Below, piece after piece: positions 10,423 through 57,750 of a stretch of DNA of 64,000 nucleotides (the first letter of the stretch is position 1; every line of letters begins with the position of its first letter). The position numbers and the translations under genes are program-made. The notes below the pieces were generated by a model. The model did not search any database. It was not told where the DNA came from and worked only from the letters and a program-made list of their open reading frames with translations. This DNA is from Patescibacteria group bacterium UBA3531 (GTDB lineage Bacteria; Patescibacteriota; Minisyncoccia; Phycocordibacterales; UBA3531). The stretch is from positions 143,741-207,740 of the forward strand of contig DFOW01000001.1 of the NCBI GenBank assembly GCA_002376885.1, given 5' to 3'.

Positions 10423-12585
10423 ATGAAATTGCTGATTGTTGAGTCACCCGCAAAAGCAAAAACAATTACCAAGTATTTAGATAATAAATACAAAGTTCTT
10501 GCTTCGGTGGGCCATATTAGAGACTTGCCAAAAAGTAATAAAAAAGCCATCGACATCGAGGGCGGTTTTGTGCCGCATTATGAGGTGGCAAAAGGTAAAG
10601 AAGCTGTCGTAAAAGACCTAAAGAGCGCCATCAAAAAAGCAGATGAGGTGGTACTTGCTACCGACCCCGACCGTGAGGGAGAAGCTATTGCATGGCATAT
10701 TGAAGAGCTTTCTGGCAAAAAAGACTTAAAACGAATTGCTTTTAACGAAATCACCAAAGAAGCAGTGCAAGAAGCACTCAAACACCCTCGTTCTATAGAT
10801 ACCAATTTAAGGCGTGCGCAAGAGGCACGGCGCGTACTCGACAGACTTGTAGGATACGATCTTTCTGGTCTTATTTGGAAGAAACTGCGTTACGGTCTTT
10901 CTGCAGGGCGCGTGCAATCACCTGCTCTCCGTATTTTAATGGAGCGCGAAAAAGAGATCAGAGCTTTCAAACCGGAAGCATTTTGGGTGATCACTGCAGA
11001 CACACAAACAAAGAAAAAAGAACCTCTTCCTCTTGCTTGCAGCATTGAGCCAAAAACAGAAGAAGAAACTGACTCTATTATAGAAGCCGGCAAAAAAGGA
11101 CCCTGGGTAGTAGATGCAATTGAAGAGCGTGAAGTATCACAATCACCACGAGCGCCGTTTATTACCTCAACACTCCAACAAGCTGCAAACTCTCGTCTTG
11201 GGTTCTCTCCAAGTAAAACTATGGGCGTTGCACAAAAACTCTACGAGGCAGGCCATATTACCTATATGCGAACCGATAGTCCAACACTTTCAGGGGCCGC
11301 CCTTAAAGATGTCACTAGTGTCATTAAAAAAGGATACGGAGACGACAAGGTAGAAGTTCGCGCATTTAAAACACGCAAAAAGAGTGCACAAGAGGCACAC
11401 GAAGCAATCCGTCCAACGAGCGCAAGCAAAAAAGTTTGTGGAACAACTGCCGAACAAAAAAAATTATATTCTCTTATTTGGTCGCGTACGATTGCATCGC
11501 AAATGGTTGCAGCCCGTGTTATGCGAACAAAAGTTATTGTCCAAGTAGGTAACGGGACGACTCCACCATTTCATGTAAATGGATCACGAATCAAATCTCC
11601 GGGATGGCTCCTTGCTGATCCCTATGCACAAAGAGAAGACGTAATCCTTCCCGAGGTTTCTAAGGGGGGCAAGCTGACTCTTGTTTCAATCGAAAAAGAA
11701 GGTAAAGAAACCCAACCACCAAACCGCTACTCTGAAGCCGGTCTTATTAAAGAGCTTGAGAAGCGAGAAATTGGACGCCCTAGCACGTATGCAAGCATCA
11801 TTAAAGTTCTTGTTGATCGTGAGTATGTAGAAAAGCAAGGACGAACCCTTATTCCTACTGATACCGGCGAAGTCGTTAATGACTTTTTGGAGAATCACTT
11901 TACCGAATACATTAGCGATGACTTTACCAGTGAAATGGAAAAAGAACTTGATGAAATTGCTGAAGGTAAAAGAGAGTACGCTTCTACCCTTTCTGATTTC
12001 TATACCCCTTTTCAAAAGCGAGTTGAATCAAAAGAACATCTTGAGAAGATTTCAAACCTAGGTGAAGCAGACAAAAAACATGTATGCCCTGTATGCGGAG
12101 ACAGCATGGTTATTAAACTTGGAAAAACAGGAAAGTTTTTGAGTTGTAAAAAATTCCCCGACTGTACTGGTGCTCGTAAAATCGATGGAACCGAACTTGC
12201 CCAACCAAAAGAAATCGGCGAAGACTGTCCTGATTGTAAGGATGGAAAACTTGTACAAAAAGAAGGGCGTTTTGGAATGTTTATTGCTTGTAGCAATTAC
12301 CCAAAGTGTAAGCATGTAAAACAAGATCCATCATCACTAAAAGGAACCGGTGTTACCTGTCCTGAATGCAAAAAGGGCGAGATGGTTGAACGTCGCGGGC
12401 GATTTGGAATTTTTTATAGTTGTAGTGGTTATCCAAAGTGTAAATACGCCATTAAAGCAAAACCAACCGGAAACACGTGCCCCATGTGTGGCAAACTTAT
12501 GATGGAAGGGACCAAAACCATTCCAGAACGTTGTAGCGACAAAGCTTGCCCAAACCATAACCCTCATAAATTGGACAAAAAATAG
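10423..12585 (+). CDS. topA: DNA topoisomerase I with C-terminal zinc ribbons
   Basis: MKLLIVESPAKAKTI TOPRIM start, active-site ITYMRTDS, multiple C4 zinc ribbons at C-terminus. Confidence 0.9.
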   Translation: MKLLIVESPAKAKTITKYLDNKYKVLASVGHIRDLPKSNKKAIDIEGGFVPHYEVAKGKEAVVKDLKSAIKKADEVVLATDPDREGEAIAWHIEELSGKKDLKRIAFNEITKEAVQEALKHPRSIDTNLRRAQEARRVLDRLVGYDLSGLIWKKLRYGLSAGRVQSPALRILMEREKEIRAFKPEAFWVITADTQTKKKEPLPLACSIEPKTEEETDSIIEAGKKGPWVVDAIEEREVSQSPRAPFITSTLQQAANSRLGFSPSKTMGVAQKLYEAGHITYMRTDSPTLSGAALKDVTSVIKKGYGDDKVEVRAFKTRKKSAQEAHEAIRPTSASKKVCGTTAEQKKLYSLIWSRTIASQMVAARVMRTKVIVQVGNGTTPPFHVNGSRIKSPGWLLADPYAQREDVILPEVSKGGKLTLVSIEKEGKETQPPNRYSEAGLIKELEKREIGRPSTYASIIKVLVDREYVEKQGRTLIPTDTGEVVNDFLENHFTEYISDDFTSEMEKELDEIAEGKREYASTLSDFYTPFQKRVESKEHLEKISNLGEADKKHVCPVCGDSMVIKLGKTGKFLSCKKFPDCTGARKIDGTELAQPKEIGEDCPDCKDGKLVQKEGRFGMFIACSNYPKCKHVKQDPSSLKGTGVTCPECKKGEMVERRGRFGIFYSCSGYPKCKYAIKAKPTGNTCPMCGKLMMEGTKTIPERCSDKACPNHNPHKLDKK

Positions 12586-12587
12586 TA

Positions 12588-12609
12588 GAGGCCCACTTTC
12601 GTGGGCCTC
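12588..12609. terminator. GC hairpin after topA (gaggcccac-tttc-gtgggcctc)
   Basis: Perfect 9-bp stem immediately after topA stop; no strong T-run. Confidence 0.4.
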
Positions 12610-12636
12610 TGAGTTCGTTGTTCTGGAGTTCTGCCT

Positions 12637-12903
12637 CTAGGCCGACTCCGGAATCCCTCCGACCTCCTTGAGACGCCTGTTGGCGCGCTCGAGGAGCTCG
12701 TCCCGATCGTAGCCGGGCCAGACGATCGTACGCGTCCCGGCCAGAAGCGATCGGATGTAACCACCAACACACCTGATACGCCAGGCACCCTGGTTCGCCC
12801 CCCGATCGGTGTGATCACCGAGCTTGTCGATGAAGGCGAGCTCCTGCTGTTGCGTCCACCCGGTGGTCAAAGGCCCCGAAACGGGAACCGATCGACGTGT
12901 CAT
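12637..12903 (-). CDS. G+C-rich ORFan (cassette A), 88 aa
   Basis: GC3-rich frame; AGGAG 6 nt upstream of ATG; own TTGACA-17-TATTTT promoter; no family recognised. Confidence 0.4.
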   Translation of the reverse strand: MTRRSVPVSGPLTTGWTQQQELAFIDKLGDHTDRGANQGAWRIRCVGGYIRSLLAGTRTIVWPGYDRDELLERANRRLKEVGGIPESA

Positions 12904-15530: not shown

Positions 15531-15653
15531 CCAGGGAAGGAATTGGTAGGTGAAATGTCTGGGAGACATTTCACGACGACTATCTAAATCTTCTCTTCGG
15601 AGGTGGGAGTTCCCTGCCTTGTCGGCAGACAGGGATTCTCCCCCCGGGCACCA
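15531..15653 (+). pseudogene. degenerate tRNA-Leu-derived copy with hairpin insertions (tRNA-like element)
   Basis: Shares D-loop GGAATTGGTAG, variable arm and T-stem with the adjacent tRNA-Leu. Carries a perfect 11-bp hairpin with GGG loop (GTGAAATGTCT-GGG-AGACATTTCAC) and a 21-nt insertion in the T-loop. Anticodon arm destroyed, acceptor ends do not pair, ends GCACCA. Confidence 0.5.
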
Positions 15654-15679
15654 CAGCTCATTGACCAAAGGAACTTCTT

Positions 15680-16090
15680 TTGGTTAAATCAGTAATGGGT
15701 GGCAATGGGTGCCACAAAGCTCATGTACCACTTGTCTTTGGGGAGACAAACGTGAAACAAGGAAGGACGTCCTGTGAAGATCCGTTCGTCAACTTCAACG
15801 ATCACCTCTACAAGCGCCGGGGCATCGGCTCGCTCGAAGAGGGGAAGCTCGAACGGACGGAGGATCGACCCGCCTGGGTGCCGGAGGAAGCGACCGTCGC
15901 TGTACGGACGCGGCGCCTCCACGAACGGAGGGTTCTCGAGGTAACCACGTTCCGCCCGAACGGGAGCGGGTTCATCGAACAGAAGAACATCTTGGGAGGC
16001 GGCCGCGGTAGCATGCCGTCCCCCCAGATCGTGGAGATGCTCCTGAAGGAGGAGTACCCCTCGATCGACGTCCACCTCATCCAGGGCTAG
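15680..16090 (+). CDS. G+C-rich ORFan (cassette B); alternative GTG start at 15752
   Basis: Strong G/C bias at third codon positions in this frame; AGGAAGG just before internal GTG; overlapping minus-strand ORF 15689..16075 treated as GC shadow. Confidence 0.4.
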   Translation: MVKSVMGGNGCHKAHVPLVFGETNVKQGRTSCEDPFVNFNDHLYKRRGIGSLEEGKLERTEDRPAWVPEEATVAVRTRRLHERRVLEVTTFRPNGSGFIEQKNILGGGRGSMPSPQIVEMLLKEEYPSIDVHLIQG

Positions 16091-16111
16091 CGCTTCAGGC
16101 GCACAGCCTTC

Positions 16112-17117: not shown

Positions 17118-17183
17118 CTCTCCTGTATGTACAGTGAGGCCATTATAACAGAGAGAGTAGGAAAAGAAATTATTTCTTTACCT

Positions 17184-17210
17184 CGTTATGAATAGTGTGC
17201 TTCCTGCACC
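17184..17210. repeat. 27-bp direct repeat copy of the rpmG 3' end (cgttatgaatagtgtgcttcctgcacc)
   Basis: Matches 17326-17352 (cgttatgCatagtgtgcttcctgcacc) with one mismatch; separated by a GC-rich 105-bp spacer. Confidence 0.7.
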
Positions 17211-17311
17211 TATTACCACTCGGAAACCCACGGTTTTCCGACGGCTTCGCCTGCCTTTCTCCACGGGAAAACTAGAGTTTTCCCGACCCCTTTCCTGCAA
17301 ATGGTACAGGA

Positions 17312-17470
17312 TTACTTTTTTATTTCGTTATGCATAGTGTGCTTCCTGCACCATTTACAGTGCTTTTTGAGTTCAATTTTACGCTCAACAAGCTTCCGAT
17401 TCTTTCGGCTCCAGTAATTAGTGCGCTTACAATCTTTGCACGCAAGTTTTATAAGTTGATCTTGTGACAT
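17312..17470 (-). CDS. rpmG: 50S ribosomal protein L33
   Basis: 52-aa ORF below track cutoff: MSQDQLIKLACKDCKRTNYWSRKNRKLVERKIELKKHCKWCRKHTMHNEIKK, with CxxC...CxxC zinc ribbon and HxxE ending typical of L33. Confidence 0.75.
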   Translation of the reverse strand: MSQDQLIKLACKDCKRTNYWSRKNRKLVERKIELKKHCKWCRKHTMHNEIKK

Positions 17471-17532
17471 ATATTCAAAATTTGAGCTTCATAAAGATAC
17501 CCCATAGACCCTGAAAAATCAAGAGAAAAGGC

Positions 17533-17928
17533 TCACCATGCGGCGAGCCTTCCTTCCCCCGTGCCCTCGGGCTTGGGAGGAATGGCGCTTCTCTGCGGCC
17601 TTCGGAAGAACTGAGATTCCCCCATGGCACGCAACATCTTGACGAAGTCGTCCTCGACACAGAAACCGAGCCTCATGATGCACTCGGGACCATCGCAAAG
17701 GACAACGACAGCGTGACTTCCTTGGGCGCCGTCCTTGGGCTGGAAGACCGAGACCCTTCCTTGGAAGCGCCAAGCAACCAAGCAATCGATGAATCCGATC
17801 TTCGTCCCACAACGAGGACAGACGCGCTTGGGGCACCACACCCCAAACCCAGCACCGGCACTGATACTGTCAGCAACCGAAGACCCCCAGGAAGTGACCC
17901 AATAATCTTCGGGAACAATCTGCGTCAC
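17533..17928 (-). CDS. G+C-rich ORFan with 4-Cys zinc-ribbon-like motif (cassette C), GTG start
   Basis: CPKRVCPRCG...CDGPEC; GC3-rich; AAAGGGGGGG upstream of GTG; no family recognised. Confidence 0.4.
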   Translation of the reverse strand: MTQIVPEDYWVTSWGSSVADSISAGAGFGVWCPKRVCPRCGTKIGFIDCLVAWRFQGRVSVFQPKDGAQGSHAVVVLCDGPECIMRLGFCVEDDFVKMLRAMGESQFFRRPQRSAIPPKPEGTGEGRLAAW

Positions 17929-17961
17929 AGCCCCCCCTTTCTGAAAAACACTTTACCTTTT

Positions 17962-17990
17962 TTGACATAAAAAAGAAAGCATAGTATGGT
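17962..17990 (+). promoter_or_regulatory. promoter TTGACAtaaaaaag-17-TATGGT for cassette C plus-strand gene
   Basis: TTGACA 17962-17967, TATGGT 17985-17990. Confidence 0.45.
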
Positions 17991-18303
17991 TTACGTCTGT
18001 TCTTATTGGGGAAGGAGCCCTATAGACATGCACCATGTTGAAGTGCTAGACATCGATGGATTCCAGAACTTCCGCCTACATGAGGGAGACGAGATCATCC
18101 TCCCTGGCGTTCATCTCGAAGCCTCTCCCGCCCCGGGAGACAAGGTGAAGCTCGCCTTCCGTGACGTGGACTGCGTGACGAAGACGAGAGAAGCACTCAT
18201 CACCGGATCCATCGACCCCGGCGAGCCGAGCAACCCGAGGGAGCCCGTGGCTCCCAAGGACATCCGAGTTCGGTGGAACGATCCCATCGTGCGCTGGTCC
18301 TAA
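17986..18303 (+). CDS. G+C-rich ORFan (cassette C), 105 aa (alternative start 18028)
   Basis: GC3-rich frame, followed by strong terminator; no family recognised. Confidence 0.4.
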   Translation: MVYVCSYWGRSPIDMHHVEVLDIDGFQNFRLHEGDEIILPGVHLEASPAPGDKVKLAFRDVDCVTKTREALITGSIDPGEPSNPREPVAPKDIRVRWNDPIVRWS

Positions 18304-18352: not shown

Positions 18353-18485
18353 TACAGTGTGCGCCGGGCAGGATTCGGTCACGAGTTACAAATTCGCTTT
18401 GCTCATAAGTACTCTCGACCCCAGCTCAAAAATAATCTCCCAGATTATTTTTTCCGCTCTTCGAATCCTAATTCCAGTCCAGAAA

Positions 18486-18516: not shown

Positions 18517-18526
18517 ATCTCTGTGT

Positions 18527-18609
18527 GCGCCGGGCAGGATTCGAACCTGCGTAGGTCTAAGACCGGCGGATTTACAGTCCGCTGCAATTGACCACTCTGC
18601 CACCGACGC
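18527..18609 (-). tRNA. tRNA-Tyr (anticodon GTA), long variable arm
   Basis: Acceptor GCGTCGG/CCGGCGC, anticodon stem GCGGA/TCCGC loop CTGTAAA, T-arm GCAGGTTCGAATCCTGC. Confidence 0.85.
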
Positions 18610-28296: not shown

Positions 28297-29475
28297 ATGT
28301 CAATCATAACCCTGACGTTGATCGTCTTCGTCACGCTCCTTGTTCTGAGTGTGCCGTTGTTCGTCCTCGTTGCGTGGCTCCTGGCCTACCTGGATATCTT
28401 TTTTGGATTCCTCCAGGAGAATACGGGCTTCGCCAAGATCGTTGGAGACAACCAACTTCAAAGCATGCAAATCGCTTCGAAGAGTCAGCACCTCAAAAGG
28501 AAGGTGGTCCAACACCCTGAGGCGGGCGCAATCGAGACGTGGGTTCTGGAACAAGGAGCAGATCCCAACCCTGCCTTCGGCCTTATTGGTTGGATGGAGC
28601 GCAAGCTTGGTGTCTACTGGATTGGTGTTTGGCCGTTCCAAAGGCGCTACCGGTACGAGATGTTCCGAACCGTCTTCGATCGGAGTGCTGACGCAGACGA
28701 GAACACGATCCTCCGGAAGAATGACCAGAGCAAGTTCTTCTACGTTCAGCCGGTGGAGTACGCCTTCTCTCTCCTCGGAGCAGAGACAGGCAGTGCCTTC
28801 GCTGGCGACACAGAAGATACGGACACTTCGTCTCGGGGTGGCAACATCCCGGTGAACGTGAAGTTCTCCGTGTTCCTCTTGATCACAAGACCCGAGATTG
28901 CCCTCTTCAAGAACCCTGTATGGTTCGAGCGAGCAAGCTCGATCCTTCTGTCCGCAGCGAAGAACTACGTCGGCACTCGTGCGTATGAGGCGCTCCGTGG
29001 CGAAAGCCGATCGGACACCGCAGACGTCGAGACCGATGATGCCTTCGCGGGCTACATGCGGGATCTGAACGAAGCGATTCCGGGAACCGGTCACGGCTTC
29101 GAATCCGAGATCGGTGCCAAGATCGTCGGAGCGGCCATCAGAGCCGTCGACATCACGGCGGAGGGCGAAGAGGCCCGAAGCGCAACGCTGCTCCTCTACG
29201 GAGAAGAGCAGCGCGCCAAGGGAATCCGAGCCGTCGCTGATGCGCGTCGCTACGAGCTCGAACAGGAGCTCGATGCAGTCGATGGATCCCCCAACGGGGG
29301 GCACGTCCGTCGGATGCGCGCGATCGAGCGTGCAGGTGAGCGTGGTAACACAATCATCTTCACGAGCGGCGGCGACGAAAAGGAGGATCGTGTCGCAGCG
29401 AACCTTCTGGCTGGCCGCAAGGGTGAAGACCCCTCAAGCGAAGGCACCGATGACTCCACCGAGAAGGAGGAGTAG
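28297..29475 (+). CDS. G+C-rich SPFH/band-7-like membrane protein (cassette D)
   Basis: N-terminal TM, beta-rich core with ...ASSILLSAAKNYVGTRAYEAL..., EIGAKIVGAAIRAVDI, then A/E/R-rich coiled-coil AEGEEARSA...RAKGIRAVADARRYE as in HflK/C-flotillin. Confidence 0.5.
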   Translation: MSIITLTLIVFVTLLVLSVPLFVLVAWLLAYLDIFFGFLQENTGFAKIVGDNQLQSMQIASKSQHLKRKVVQHPEAGAIETWVLEQGADPNPAFGLIGWMERKLGVYWIGVWPFQRRYRYEMFRTVFDRSADADENTILRKNDQSKFFYVQPVEYAFSLLGAETGSAFAGDTEDTDTSSRGGNIPVNVKFSVFLLITRPEIALFKNPVWFERASSILLSAAKNYVGTRAYEALRGESRSDTADVETDDAFAGYMRDLNEAIPGTGHGFESEIGAKIVGAAIRAVDITAEGEEARSATLLLYGEEQRAKGIRAVADARRYELEQELDAVDGSPNGGHVRRMRAIERAGERGNTIIFTSGGDEKEDRVAANLLAGRKGEDPSSEGTDDSTEKEE

Positions 29476-30252
29476 ATGAAGATGCCTGACTCGATAAGGG
29501 GGCTTGGGTGGAAGCGGTTCTCCGCAACTGCCCTTACCTCGTTCATCCTCGTCATTGTCTCGTTCATGATCGTGAACGCAGGCGAGGGCGAGGCAGAGAA
29601 GGTCTTCAAGACTCTCTCTGTGATTGCGACCGGGATTGGAGCACTCCTCGTTCTCCTGCTTCTTCTCGTGATCGTGTCGTCTCTTGCTCGTAGGCGTCGG
29701 TCTCTCAAAAAAGAGACTCCCGTCGTCGACAAGCCGACCAAACCAGGAAGATGGCAGAAGTTCAGGGCCACTCCCTTCTTCTGGACACTCTTCAAGGTCT
29801 CCGCCTTCGTAGTGGCAGTAGTCATTGCAATAAGCGGATTCCCTCTGTTGCGTGACGCCATGAACATCCCCGACGTGGGGCCCAGGAATGGAGATCTCAA
29901 GTTCTCCAAGTGGACGCTCTCCAGTACACCACTGTCGTACAACCTGAATCGAACGACACGTGGTACGGTCAAGATCTGGAAGAAAGAGCGTCGCTTTGAG
30001 CTTCCGTTCTTCTTGAACATGAAGCTCATGGGCGAGGATGGAGTTCTCGTGGGGCAAATCACCTCGAGTGACTTTGCCATGGGCGAGACCTTCCCCGTCA
30101 CCTGGGAGATGACCTGGCGAGACCATATGACCGGAGACGGAGCCCTCGAGTGTCACTACAACAAACACCACAGCGTGATTGCTTGTAACGGCACCATCTG
30201 CGGCGAAGATTCCGAAGGTCGGAGGTGTCGTCGAGTGAACTTTAGCGGCTAG
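29476..30252 (+). CDS. G+C-rich membrane protein (3 TM + Cys-containing soluble C-domain), start abuts upstream stop; possible NfeD-like partner
   Basis: TAG-ATG junction at 29473-29478; three hydrophobic helices; no family recognised. Confidence 0.4.
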   Translation: MKMPDSIRGLGWKRFSATALTSFILVIVSFMIVNAGEGEAEKVFKTLSVIATGIGALLVLLLLLVIVSSLARRRRSLKKETPVVDKPTKPGRWQKFRATPFFWTLFKVSAFVVAVVIAISGFPLLRDAMNIPDVGPRNGDLKFSKWTLSSTPLSYNLNRTTRGTVKIWKKERRFELPFFLNMKLMGEDGVLVGQITSSDFAMGETFPVTWEMTWRDHMTGDGALECHYNKHHSVIACNGTICGEDSEGRRCRRVNFSG

Positions 30253-37889: not shown

Positions 37890-38249
37890 GTGTATACCGC
37901 AGCATCTCTTTTTCTGATCATCTTCTGCGTGGCATGCTCCCCTGTGGAGGAGGCAAGCCCCAGAGAGAAAGTGAATGAAATCCGGCAGGGTTTCGTGAAT
38001 GACATCGGAGATGAGGGCCTAGAGAAGGCTCTTGAGAACCTCTCGCAGGAATGCGAGAAGCTCGAAGGCTACGGCTTCAGTGTCAAGACCCTCAACAGGA
38101 CTCGAGGCGTCTACAAGATCAAGATCACTGGGCCCAACGTGGCAACCCAGGTGATCTTTCAGACCTCTGAGTCAGTCGACGAGCAATCCTCTGCAGAGCG
38201 CCTGGACGCTCCTACACTCAAGGGGTTTGAGGCTCCCATTCTCCAGTAG
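37890..38249 (+). CDS. G+C-rich putative lipoprotein ORFan (cassette E)
   Basis: Signal LFLIIFCVACSP with lipobox-like Cys; GC3-rich; GAGAATACC-GTG/ATG context; terminator follows. Confidence 0.4.
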   Translation: MYTAASLFLIIFCVACSPVEEASPREKVNEIRQGFVNDIGDEGLEKALENLSQECEKLEGYGFSVKTLNRTRGVYKIKITGPNVATQVIFQTSESVDEQSSAERLDAPTLKGFEAPILQ

Positions 38250-46002: not shown

Positions 46003-47262
46003 ATGCCAAAAATAGACCCAGAAATCGAGACATTTGCTAGAATCCGCGTCGTTGGTGTGGGTGGATCTGGTAACAATGCGGTGGCCCACATGGTCAACCA
46101 GAAGGTTAAGGGGGTTGAATTTATTGCTGTAAATACCGACGCTCAAGCGCTCCACCATGGAAGCGCCTCAAAAAAGATCCATATTGGAAAGACCCTTACT
46201 CGAGGACTCGGCACGGGAATGAATCCAGAGATTGGAAAGCGTGCTGCTGAAGAAACTATTGAAGAAATCCAACAAGCCGTAAAAGGTGCAGACATGATTT
46301 TTGTTACCTGCGGACTGGGAGGAGGAACCGGAACAGGGGCTGCTCCTGTTGTTGCGCGCGTTGCAAAAGAACAAGGAATTTTGACGGTTGGAGTCGTTAC
46401 CAAGCCGTTCTTCTTTGAAGGAAACCAACGAATGCGACTTGCAGAAGAAGGACTTGAAGAATTAAAAAAAGACGTTGACGCACTTATCGTGATTCCAAAC
46501 GACAGACTCTTGGGAGTTGTCGACAAGGACACTTCGTTTGCAAATGCCTTTGCAATGTGTGACGAAATATTAAAACAAGCGGTTCAAGGAATCTCTGACC
46601 TTATTACCACTCCTGGAATTATTAACCTGGACTTCGCAGACATCCGAAGCGTTATGGAAAACGCAGGAAGCGCACTTATGGGAATCGGTTTGGCAACAGG
46701 AGAAAAGCGAGCAGAAGAAGCTGCAACTCTTGCCATTAACTCTCCCCTCCTTGATATCTCAATCGAAGGCGCACAAGGAGTACTCTTTGCAATTGCTGGA
46801 GGAGACGACCTTACCATGCTTGAAATCCAAGACGCAGCTAAAGTTATTACCGAATCTATCGACAAAGATGCAAAAGTTATCTTTGGTGCCATTAATGACG
46901 AAAAACTTAAAAAGAACCAGGTTAAAGTTACGGTTATTGCAACCGGCTTCCCTGACGGAGCTTTTAAAAAATCACTCTTTGGAGATGATTCCGGAAAACC
47001 TCCACAAACAAGCTCATTTAGCTTCTTAGGCAAAGGAGACGAGGAGAAAAAGCCAGAACCTAAAAAAGAAGAAGAGAAGCCCAAGAAAGTAGAGAAAAAG
47101 GAAATTAAAAAAGAGACACCAAAGGGAGCAATCTACAATGAGCTTAGCGAGTCAAACGTTAAAAAAGTAGACCTCACGAAAACGGGAGATGATAAGAAGG
47201 ACGACAAAAAAGAGGAAGACGACTGGTCTTCAATCCCCGCCTTCTTAAGAAGGAAGAAGTAA
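46003..47262 (+). CDS. ftsZ: cell division protein FtsZ
   Basis: [10 protein letters not shown], tubulin signature [13 protein letters not shown], Lys/Glu-rich C-tail; start at internal ATG. Confidence 0.9.
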
Positions 47263-47269
47263 GCATAAG

Positions 47270-47312
47270 AAAACCACCCAAGAGGACTGGAACCTTTTTT
47301 GGGTGGCCTTAA
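47270..47312. terminator. bidirectional terminator CCACCCAA...TTGGGTGG with T-runs on both strands
   Basis: After ftsZ stop and after minus-strand cassette F gene. Confidence 0.6.
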
Positions 47313-47902
47313 GTGTGTCGAGTGATGTAGATCACGCGACGACACCCAATTACGAACTCTTTTTGGAGGAGGTCTAGGAGTTCTGGATAGTTTCTCCTTT
47401 CTCTAAGCCATGCGTACGAGAAGGCGTCACACACTCTTTCACATTCCCTGTATTCCTCACCGAACATTCCCGACAGAACATCCTGCAGATCTTCGCTCAC
47501 GCCCCTTACGAGTGAAAAGACGTGGGCTAGTTCGTGGCCGACACCAACAATCCATTCCTCGAGCGTCTCGTGCGCAGCGAGCACAATGTGAAGAGGAGGA
47601 GTGCCCAGAGCAATACTTGCCCCAGGTCTCCACGAAACTTCCCAGGGTGTTTCTCCTGGAATGTCATCAAATCGTGTCACCGTAATTGACTCTATATGAA
47701 ATGCCTCGAGTTGTTCTGTCACAGTTCCCGGAGGAATCATGGCAAGCATCTCTTCAACGAATCGATTATGATTCCCCACAATTCCTCCTTTCGAAGAACA
47801 ATTTATCCTAGTATACACTATGCGGAACATCATACGAAAAAGTTGGAACCGCCTTGAGGAGTATGTATTTGAGTCTTTTGAACTTCTCCAAAACAAAAAC
47901 AA
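47309..47902 (-). CDS. G+C-rich HExxH-motif protein, putative ImmA/IrrE-like zinc metallopeptidase (cassette F); alternative start 47749
   Basis: IVGVGHELAHVFSLV motif; GC3-rich; N-terminal 51 residues may be non-coding. Confidence 0.4.
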   Translation of the reverse strand: MFLFWRSSKDSNTYSSRRFQLFRMMFRIVYTRINCSSKGGIVGNHNRFVEEMLAMIPPGTVTEQLEAFHIESITVTRFDDIPGETPWEVSWRPGASIALGTPPLHIVLAAHETLEEWIVGVGHELAHVFSLVRGVSEDLQDVLSGMFGEEYRECERVCDAFSYAWLRERRNYPELLDLLQKEFVIGCRRVIYITRHT

Positions 47903-48037
47903 CCCTGATTTCTCAAGGAAATTGAGTGGGTAGTGGTCACATGGTGTTAGTAGAACATATACACAAAAGAGAACACCCCGCCGAGAGCCTGCGAGGGTTC
48001 TCGGCGGGGTGATGAAGTATCGCTTTTGGGTCAGTAG

Positions 48038-48373
48038 CTAGCTAGACCAGGTCTCCATCCCGACCAGCACAGAAATGATGGTCAGGACAATGAAGATGGG
48101 AATTCCGACTGCTCGCCCAAACCTTGCGTAAAGGTAGAGCGTGATGGAGTTGCGAATGACACCCTCGGGGTCGTGCTTGCGAAAGCAGAAGTTGGCGAAC
48201 ACCGACAGGGGGCACCACAGAAAGATGACTTGACCAATTACGGTCAACAGGATTGCCAACCTTGTGATGTGATTCGGCAACCACAGCTCTCCGAAGATGA
48301 GAACTGCAACAATGAAGACTGCGTGGAATGCCTCAGTTGCGATACCGAGGCAGAGCCATCCTTTTTTGGACAT
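48038..48373 (-). CDS. G+C-rich small membrane protein (cassette F)
   Basis: Track ORF 48038..48541 trimmed because its 5' end runs through tRNA-Ser; start at MSKKGW; 3 TM. Confidence 0.4.
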   Translation of the reverse strand: MSKKGWLCLGIATEAFHAVFIVAVLIFGELWLPNHITRLAILLTVIGQVIFLWCPLSVFANFCFRKHDPEGVIRNSITLYLYARFGRAVGIPIFIVLTIISVLVGMETWSS

Positions 48374-48468
48374 TACTTTACCTCGGTTGGGGGAACTACA
48401 AGACGAAGGATTTCGTCCTGTCTTAACCACAAATAGCCTACCACAAGATAGGCTATTTGTCAATACTA

Positions 48469-48555
48469 TGGAGAGGGTGGGATTTGAACCCACGTGAGGA
48501 TTGCTCCTCCGATCGATTTCGAGTCGACGCCGTTTAACCACTCCGGCACCTCTCC
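48469..48555 (-). tRNA. tRNA-Ser (anticodon CGA), long variable arm
   Basis: Acceptor GGAGAGG/CCTCTCC, D-loop GTGGTTAAAC, anticodon loop CTCGAAA, variable hairpin, T-arm GTGGGTTCAAATCCCAC. Confidence 0.8.
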
Positions 48556-48647
48556 AGTAGCTTTGTAATGCTAGCAGAATTTACTTTGGCAAACAAAGGT
48601 GGTATAGTATTTCCGAAATCAGCGAATGCTGATTTTTTTAAACCAAT

Positions 48648-53510: not shown

Positions 53511-53622
53511 TTAGGGTCGGGCTCGAACCGACGGTCTCCCTCGCTTCGTTCGGATGAAAAGTAATCCCATTACTTTTCATCCCTTCGCCATCCGGCGAAG
53601 GATCATTTAAACTAACCCTGCC
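53511..53622 (-). pseudogene. degenerate tRNA-Phe-derived copy with hairpin insertions (tRNA-like element)
   Basis: T-arm GTCGGTTCGAGCCCGAC identical to adjacent tRNA-Phe; anticodon arm replaced by TTCGCC-GGAT-GGCGAA tetraloop hairpin; inserted perfect 14-bp hairpin GGATGAAAAGTAAT-GGG-ATTACTTTTCATCC; acceptor does not pair. Confidence 0.45.
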
Positions 53623-53658: not shown

Positions 53659-53735
53659 TGGTGCCCAGGGTCGGGCTCGAACCGACGACCCTTCGCTCTT
53701 CAGGCGAATGCTCTAGCCAACTGAGCTACCTGGGC
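53659..53735 (-). tRNA. tRNA-Phe (anticodon GAA), CCA encoded
   Basis: Acceptor GCCCAGG/CCTGGGC, anticodon stem TTCGC/GCGAA loop CTGAAGA, ends CACCA. Confidence 0.85.
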
Positions 53736-57274: not shown

Positions 57275-57300
57275 AGCACTACTATACTAAAGTATTTCTC

Positions 57301-57347
57301 TTAAAAAGAAAGCCGCCTCGAGTCCACAATGGGTACCCGGGCGGCGG
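57301..57347 (-). terminator. GC hairpin + U-run ending the cassette G transcript just upstream of lepA start
   Basis: Minus RNA ...CUCCGCCGCCCGGGUACCCAUUGUGGACUCGAGGCGGCUUUCUUUUU. Confidence 0.45.
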
Positions 57348-57453
57348 AGTGGACGGCACCTGGGTGCGTCCATGGTTTTCTAGTGCGCAAGGCGCACCTT
57401 GGTGGAAGGTCCCAGCTCAAGGGGTGAGCCTCGAGTCTGGGCGGAAGGCGGAT

Positions 57454-57648
57454 CTAGCCGAAGAGGGGCGCACCGAGCGAGACGACCCCGCCGGGCAGGA
57501 TCACGTGACCCCGACCATCCGAACCGAGCGGCGGACCGCTGAGCTCGGAGAACGGGATCTCGCTCTCGCGACGGAGCCGGCGAACCGAGCCACGCGTCCG
57601 GGTGCTCTCCTTGGTGCGTACCGTGCCTTCGCCTTCCTGTTTCTTCAT
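57454..57648 (-). CDS. very G+C-rich small basic ORF (cassette G), 64 aa; coding status uncertain
   Basis: AGGAAGGGAAGGAAT-cccg-ATG context; track ORF begins at TTG inside the -35 box so trimmed to internal ATG. Confidence 0.3.
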   Translation of the reverse strand: MKKQEGEGTVRTKESTRTRGSVRRLRRESEIPFSELSGPPLGSDGRGHVILPGGVVSLGAPLFG

Positions 57649-57715
57649 CGGGATTCCTTCCCTTCCTGAAGTTCTCTTTCGAGCGCGGCCCCCAGCCACG
57701 CTACGTCCACTATCC

Positions 57716-57744
57716 AAACTACTATAATAAAAGTCTTTTGTCAA
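57716..57744 (-). promoter_or_regulatory. promoter cTTGACAaaag-17-TAGTTT for cassette G
   Basis: -35 TTGACA at 57739-57744 (minus); near-identical to cassette D promoter over 20 nt. Confidence 0.4.
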
Positions 57745-57750
57745 GCCCCC

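Follow-up and report, generated by a model that had tools for sequence, protein, structure and literature searches.

A minimal ImmA/IrrE-like putative zinc peptidase and a small membrane protein encoded in the variable interval between ftsZ and tRNA-Ser of a Patescibacteria genome

Proteases of the ImmA/IrrE type are stress-triggered switches that cut the repressors of prophages, integrative and conjugative elements (ICEs), DNA-repair regulons and the cyclic oligonucleotide-based antiphage signaling system (CBASS). The closest described systems are IrrE/PprI of Deinococcus (COG2856, MEROPS M78; PDB 3dte, 8slm, 8sln), ImmA of ICEBs1 together with the ImmA-like anti-repressors of phages and ICEs, and CapP of CBASS (PDB 7t5t), which is paired with CapH. 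COG2856/M78 proteins are usually found together with an XRE regulator, which is the substrate of the protease (PMC7907104). Here we analyzed a stretch of 64,000 nucleotides from the marine, ultra-small Patescibacteria group bacterium UBA3531 (contig DFOW01000001.1, positions 143,741 to 207,740; in the following called the window), in which a gap of about 1.2 kb between ftsZ and tRNA-Ser(CGA) is filled by two minus-strand genes, one for a protein with an HExxH motif and one for a membrane protein with three transmembrane (TM) segments. With moderate confidence we interpret them as two independently transcribed accessory genes, probably acquired by horizontal transfer, which lie in a variable slot without a recognisable integrated element, and the HExxH product as a minimal peptidase of the M78 fold.

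In a word-indexed search of 5.8 billion clustered proteins the HExxH protein matched only itself. When 1.84 billion representatives were scanned exhaustively with HMMER, eight distantly related proteins emerged (E 5e-9 to 8e-4). A profile search added two further members, and the family alignment used throughout comprises 11 sequences. The GHELAH motif corresponds to residues 81-86 and is located inside helix 73-90 of the structural model. H82 and H86 are invariant in all 11 members, E83 is kept in 10 of them, and E114, the putative third zinc ligand, follows H86 at a distance of 28 residues in model helix 108-126, which also carries C117, F120, W124 and L125. As H82, H86, E114, C117, F120, W124 and L125 are invariant across the family, we regard the HExxH gene as real. 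The resulting pattern, HExxH-x27..60-E-x2-C-[DE]-x-F-x3-W-L, parallels the M78 arrangement of two histidine ligands and a glutamate ligand in the next helix, and the invariant cysteine is specific to the HExxH family. An AlphaFold2 (AF2) model built from the family alignment reached a predicted local distance difference test score (pLDDT) of 79 and a predicted template modelling score (pTM) of 0.80; a model from the single sequence was poor (pLDDT 58) and not used. A Foldseek comparison of the family-based model returned IrrE/PprI as the top match in three structure libraries: PprI/IrrE came first in the PDB (E 0.024, prob 1.0), and among the viral models of BFVD the first matches were phage proteins annotated as 'IrrE N-terminal-like'. 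The model thus has the fold of the IrrE N-terminal peptidase domain. Taking fold and motif together we conclude that the HExxH protein is ImmA/IrrE-like at this level and would work like a minimal ImmA/IrrE-type zinc peptidase.

Several observations weigh against our interpretation. The window HExxH protein gave no match to Pfam Peptidase_M78 (PF06114) at E <= 10, and the best family member, P0004, scored 18.9 bits (E 0.0014), below the gathering threshold of 22 bits, with none of the other members matching. In favour of the interpretation, the score of P0004 is a weak link to M78 at the sequence level, and the PADLOC capP model weakly recognized P0004 and P0005 at E 2-4e-3, spanning the region from HExxH to the conserved glutamate, but the window protein itself was without a match in any library, PADLOC capP included. 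No helix-turn-helix (HTH) or XRE domain was present among the called genes within +/-10 kb of the HExxH gene, nor was an XRE/HTH partner located beside any of the homologues examined, and therefore the analogy to the regulatory proteases lacks the usual substrate. Furthermore, the family member P0013 reads HKLCH, in which the catalytic glutamate is replaced by lysine. This change is probably real because P0013 is found on two contigs from two samples (L006, 986-1486; L007, 1072-1572), so that P0013 may be a non-catalytic member and activity is probably not retained in every member of the family. With respect to the origin of the genes, HExxH homologues in other genomes are of native composition, composition and distribution are the sole grounds for the foreignness that we assume for both genes, and neither a donor nor an empty site in a close relative came to light. 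A first-pass annotation of the window, made from the letters and a list of open reading frames (ORFs), had proposed an ImmA/IrrE-like zinc peptidase and a Pfam Peptidase_M78 search as its check; fold and motif bear this proposal out, the family membership does not. Because the protein stays below the Pfam threshold and the XRE partner is absent, we refrain from assigning it to Pfam M78. A comparison of the family profile with PDB sequences produced a chance match to the HExxH of ADAMTS only (E 0.7).

Compared with IrrE/PprI, the window protein is devoid of the HTH-like and GAF-like C-terminal domains, its gene has no adjacent or identifiable DdrO-like XRE substrate, and the identity amounts to 12-21%, with the PF06114 score below the threshold as mentioned above. 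In addition, the invariant cysteine of the window family is positioned three residues after the glutamate ligand within a motif CDxFxxxWL, whereas the M78 motif reads EANxFAxxLL. The small, single-domain layout is shared with ImmA of ICEBs1 and the ImmA-like anti-repressors, which are M78 proteases encoded on mobile DNA, and this is in line with the phage IrrE-like proteins as top fold matches in BFVD. However, immA genes adjoin the gene for the XRE repressor ImmR and an integrase gene in a mobile element, and here none of these and no element boundaries are present; nor did collections of phages, plasmids and viral contigs contain a sequence match. CapP, with 278 residues in the matched chain versus 156 amino acids, is the larger protein, and the surroundings of the HExxH gene lack a CapH-like HTH gene as well as genes of CBASS or another defence system.

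If the HExxH product is indeed a minimal, single-domain zinc metallopeptidase of the ImmA/IrrE fold (MEROPS M78 / COG2856), Zn2+ would be held by His82 and His86 of the HExxH helix and by Glu114 of the following helix, and Glu83 would serve as general base. By analogy to IrrE/DdrO, ImmA/ImmR and CapP/CapH the enzyme would most likely introduce a single regulatory cut in a specific partner encoded in trans, and not contribute to bulk degradation. It is tempting to speculate that C117, which is one helical turn away from the glutamate ligand, modulates metal binding or redox sensitivity. The product of the second gene would be a small inner-membrane protein with three TM segments, and each gene would have been acquired on its own and have come to rest in a permissive, variable slot between operons. 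We infer for this locus that the genes were acquired horizontally and that the HExxH protein binds zinc, cleaves proteins and acts in regulation; the gene structures, the composition, the rarity of both proteins, the conserved motif, the similarity in fold, the lack of att repeats and of an integrase and the variable content of the slot are what the analysis showed.

The membrane protein shows three TM segments by hydropathy and has a single homologue, P0003, with 67% identity. Neither this protein nor the HExxH protein matched anything in Pfam, NCBIfam, PHROGs or PADLOC. The comparison with the homologue yielded a nonsynonymous distance (pN) of 0.21 and a synonymous distance (pS) of 0.79 with saturated synonymous sites, indicating that the membrane gene is under purifying selection and hence a real gene, and the similarity at the DNA level ends exactly at the ends of the ORF. 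The homologue is itself a GC outlier in its contig L001 (0.44 versus 0.28) and adjoins a gene for a hydrolase of the haloacid dehalogenase (HAD) superfamily; no HExxH gene is present there. On the same AT-rich contig the membrane gene and the HAD hydrolase gene are bracketed by an imperfect direct repeat (28-91 versus 1438-1493, about 65 nt, 74-86% identity), which might represent a promoter or intergenic element present twice, or mark both ends of a small mobile unit.

Read along the minus strand, tRNA-Ser is followed by two hairpins, the membrane gene, a terminator, the HExxH gene, a second terminator and the stop codon of ftsZ, which ends at 47262 (Table 1). The first-pass annotation had filled the interval from tRNA-Ser to ftsZ with an HExxH gene and a 3-TM gene, and both genes as well as the GHELAH motif were confirmed. 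It had also supposed that the ORF overlapping the tRNA needed trimming, which is correct: the longest ORF (48038-48541) is spurious, and the sole homologue aligns from the methionine at 48373. The start that it gave for the HExxH gene, TTG at 47902, had to be replaced by GTG at 47779, as the homologues align from residue 1 of the latter, the ribosome-binding site (RBS) lies at the appropriate place and the gene call of the Joint Genome Institute (JGI) is the same 156 aa. In both cases the longer models, with upstream extensions giving ORFs of 141 aa and 197 aa, were rejected because the homologue alignments and the RBS positions favour the shorter starts. An artefact of the assembly is made less likely by the fact that one of the two genes is present in each of the sources Tara (P0001) and JGI (P0002), and that the 135-kb Tara Oceans contig of JGI (3300020447 Ga0211691_10000017) encodes both. 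A search of the ftsZ-tRNA-Ser interval for structured RNA with Rfam at E <= 1 yielded the tRNA alone, and the idea of a structured RNA was rejected.

Table 1. Features of the interval between ftsZ and tRNA-Ser(CGA); positions refer to the window and dG is the folding free energy
Feature	Positions	Strand	Evidence and remarks
tRNA-Ser(CGA)	48468..48556	-	ARAGORN; Rfam 55.2 bits
Two stable hairpins directly 3' of tRNA-Ser	48398..48460	-	dG -35.2, z -4.9, 0/200 shuffles as good
Gene for 111-aa 3-TM membrane protein	48038..48373	-	GAGG RBS, ATG at 48373
Intrinsic terminator of the membrane gene	47964..48011	-	16-bp GC-rich stem and U-tract; dG -35.7, z -5.3; inverted repeat
Gene for 156-aa HExxH protein	47309..47779	-	GTG start; RBS AGGAGG at 47784-47789, 5 nt before GTG
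HExxH codons H82-E83-L-A-H86	47522..47536	-	family alignments
Codons E114-x2-C117-D-x-F120-x3-W124-L125	47405..47440	-	family alignment; model helix 108-126
Hairpin terminating the HExxH gene, next to the stop codon of ftsZ	47263..47310	-	dG -19.0, z -2.7

The arrangement of the hairpins argues for separate transcription of both genes. The strong intrinsic terminator between them (hairpin 47974-48011, dG -35.7), which is followed by a spacer of about 170 nt up to the RBS of the HExxH gene, implies two transcription units and not one cassette. The idea of a single cassette, put forward in the first-pass annotation, was therefore abandoned, also in view of the fact that homologues of both genes never co-occur. 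The hairpin downstream of the HExxH gene (47270-47310) possesses a U-tract on the minus strand only, which runs into the ftsZ stop codon, whereas on the ftsZ strand the structure is less stable (z -1.7) and without U-tail. Therefore, this hairpin is the terminator of the HExxH gene and could terminate ftsZ no more than weakly, so that only the minus-strand half of the formerly proposed bidirectional terminator stands. The two hairpins next to the tRNA consist of a perfect palindrome of 12-14 bp at 48429-48460, overlapped by a TTGACA hexamer (48458-48463), and a stem of 10 bp (48398-48421). Their probable role is 3' processing of the tRNA or termination.

The base composition sets both genes apart from their surroundings. 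The window has a mean GC content of 0.42, and the GC content at third codon positions (GC3) of 51 ORFs of the window averages 0.327 (standard deviation 0.037, maximum 0.414). With a GC3 of 0.688 (z +9.9) the membrane gene deviates strongly from this background and the HExxH gene moderately (0.471, z +3.9), which is in agreement with the earlier description of both genes as GC3-rich. The unlike values of 0.69 and 0.47 suggest separate histories of the two genes.

To place the interval in its genomic context we compared it with related genomes. Scans with FtsZ assign the organism to Patescibacteria/Paceibacteria in the vicinity of Taylorbacteria. Among species representatives the best FtsZ identity is about 66%, and the closest metagenomic relative, L092, shows 83-85% for FtsZ and 77% each for HisS and FtsA. 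The order HisS-YbeY-FtsA-FtsZ, followed at a distance by tRNA-Ser(cga)/tRNA-Glu(ttc) and, again at a distance, by tRNA-Val(gac)-TsaD-ValS recurs in relatives, and Paceibacteria relatives in general have kept the two divergently oriented tRNA genes, tRNA-Ser(cga) and tRNA-Glu(ttc), in the region from ftsZ to tsaD. It follows from this conserved synteny that tRNA-Ser and both flanks are native. Neither of the two orphans was detected by tblastn at 160 ftsZ loci of relatives, and the comparison of the interval that the first-pass annotation had suggested thus revealed no orthologue at this position. Relatives have unrelated genes next to the tRNA, such as methyltransferase or NUDIX genes, and grouping 42 distinct loci by the 1.3 kb located 3' of tRNA-Ser(cga) resulted in 24 groups without relation to one another. 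In L092 the synteny breaks immediately after ftsZ, and therefore no clean empty site can be defined. The first ORF after ftsZ in L092 (7101-7409) encodes a small orphan of 102 aa without Pfam match, unrelated to the window genes. Of the 128 Paceibacteria loci that extend far enough, 93 have a gene for a trxB-like FAD oxidoreductase after ftsZ. This gene is absent in the window and in L092, which looks like a lineage-specific loss or relocation from a conserved position.

The position of foreign-looking genes directly 3' of a tRNA raises the question of integration at the tRNA 3' end, as had been suggested in the first-pass annotation. The locus resembles tRNA-linked genomic islands and islets in that atypical accessory genes are located immediately 3' of a tRNA and the content of the slot differs between relatives. 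Accordingly, the two genes could be the remnant of a mobile element which was integrated site-specifically at the 3' end of tRNA-Ser and has since lost its integrase and the distal att site. The compositional foreignness of the genes would fit, and HExxH family members of two other lineages are likewise situated 3' of a tRNA: a homologue lies 18 nt 3' of tRNA-Leu(caa) in the contigs L004-L007, whose tRNA-Leu(caa) locus is syntenic with that of the window on the 5' side (ParB gene 62% identical), and another is found beside tRNA-Pro in L003, again 3' of the tRNA. Moreover, 21 nt of the 3' end of tRNA-Tyr (CGAATCCTGCCCGGCGCACAC) form an exact direct repeat (18357-18377 and 18523-18543) with one copy 166 nt downstream of the tRNA, which is a putative att-like signature of past integration or excision and at the same time a positive control for the att-repeat search in the same window. 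A degenerate partial copy of tRNA-Phe is also present (53513-53556 versus 53667-53710; 44 nt, 75% identity, 154 nt downstream). From these copies it follows that elements targeting tRNAs visited the genome and tRNA-directed insertion occurred, but not demonstrably at tRNA-Ser. The interval differs from the known islands by its size of 1.2 kb with two unrelated genes and by the absence of an integrase, a tRNA 3' repeat and mobility genes. It contains only two ORFs, neither of them recombinase-like, and its neighbours are ftsZ and tRNAs. A search for the partial tRNA-Ser repeat, in which the 3' 50 nt of the tRNA were aligned to 47200-48467 on both strands, gave a best local score of 16, below the shuffle mean of 17.6 (standard deviation 2.2, maximum 29), and no direct repeats flank the interval. 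Both window proteins are unmatched in plasmids (tblastn) and viral contigs, a tblastn search of phages with P0004 led only to chance NinG matches (E 8), and, with respect to an integron-type gene cassette with attC-like palindromes, no repeat family connects the interval with the GC-rich islets elsewhere in the window; the hairpins of the interval are unique and terminator-like, and the islets are dispersed, not arrayed like integron cassettes. The separate terminators, the lack of co-occurrence of the homologues and three family members without a nearby tRNA on short contigs that include the downstream flank (L088-L090) likewise speak against a remnant, and we consider this explanation unlikely. 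The suggested integration at tRNA-Ser was thus not substantiated. tRNA adjacency as a universal trait of the HExxH family was rejected as well, since three lineages show it, three do not, and one (L091, of which only about 50 nt downstream of the HExxH gene are available) is uninformative.

The remaining explanations concern the relation of the two genes to the genome, to each other and to the M78 proteases. Both genes might be native, fast-evolving and lineage-specific, with a composition that results from local or selective effects. The native synteny of the flanks, the apparent confinement of the HExxH family to Patescibacteria-type contigs with host-like composition elsewhere, and at least six other GC-rich islets in the window, which would make GC-rich orphans a genome-wide habit, are in line with this view. 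However, a GC3 of 0.69 against a mean of 0.33 is a shift at synonymous sites that protein composition does not explain, the membrane gene stands out by its GC content in each of the two genomes that carry it, and the closest relative, L092 (FtsZ 83-85%), has neither gene downstream of ftsZ. Taken together, a native origin appears rather improbable. We assign a slightly lower likelihood still, and call it very improbable, to the possibility that both genes form one module of a membrane sensor or anchor and a cytoplasmic protease, in the manner of BlaR1, an anti-sigma-type system or a toxin/immunity pair. Both genes are atypical in composition and lie side by side in the same orientation, and small membrane proteins are encoded near some HExxH homologues, namely a PGPGW-like protein of 67 aa (L004), PAP2 (L006/L007) and CorA (L003). 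None of the neighbours of the HExxH homologues is related to the membrane protein of the window, though, the sole homologue of the latter has a HAD hydrolase gene and no HExxH gene at its side, and the intrinsic terminator and the GC3 gap separate the two genes. Finally, the HExxH protein may not be of the M78 type but another minimal zincin-like hydrolase (SprT/Wss1-like or a YbeY-like nuclease) or a dead binder. The M78 relative Rir, which acts without cleaving its partner (PMC7907104), and the lost catalytic glutamate of P0013 can be counted in its favour; against it, the sole signals at the sequence level are those of M78 and capP, and E83 is kept in nearly the whole family. We regard this last alternative as highly improbable and prefer two separately acquired accessory genes, one of them for an M78-fold peptidase.

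According to this preferred reading, the HExxH protein is a very rare, divergent and partner-less variant of a known protease type and not a new kind of system, and the locus shows nothing out of the ordinary for accessory genes that lie in a variable slot at the flank of a tRNA. It represents an advance at the level of annotation and not a new mechanism. A minimal version without partner, confined to the candidate phyla radiation (CPR), would nevertheless extend the ImmA/IrrE family to organisms whose regulation is almost unknown, and with 156 aa the protein offers a compact scaffold. The locus also serves as an illustration of how, in the reduced CPR genomes with their conserved core synteny, accessory genes gather in short variable slots beside tRNAs. 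Such slots are useful for the annotation of metagenome-assembled genomes and for tracing gene flow, and they may give hints to the host if donors can be identified. A bolder idea, to which we attach little credence, is that the HExxH proteins are an unrecognised, Patescibacteria-restricted family of minimal, stand-alone ImmA/IrrE-like proteases which travel as integrase-less micro-cassettes with a preference for tRNA 3' flanks (tRNA-Ser, tRNA-Leu(caa), tRNA-Pro), and that the GC-rich islets of this AT-rich genome reflect a steady inflow of genes from a donor of higher GC content, which might be the host of the episymbiont.

At least five further GC-rich islets were observed in the window (12400-12800, 15600-16100, 17519-18303, 28297-30252 and 37890-38249), with a GC content of 0.52-0.61, GC3 values up to 0.75 and no Pfam family apart from one weak match to the major facilitator superfamily (MFS). 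Two of them are located 3' of a tRNA, in one case tRNA-Leu(caa) and in the other tRNA-Tyr. Where L004-L007 have the HExxH homologue, the window has a different GC-rich orphan in the same slot (islet 15680-16090), and the tRNA-Tyr repeat lies just before the islet 17519-18303. A direct repeat of 48 nt with 85% identity (17169-17216 and 17311-17358) was found just 5' of tRNA-Trp. In addition, in an intergenic stretch of 476 nt between lepA and murJ (57275-57750, minus strand) each of the three codon positions has a GC content of about 0.62. Its two ORFs are without Pfam match, and Rfam at E <= 1 gave no match. It starts with a TTGACA-17-TATAGT-like sequence and ends with a hairpin and a U-tract (minimum free energy -211.5, z -3.3), and from these sequence features it looks like an unclassified structured non-coding RNA of about 400 nt.

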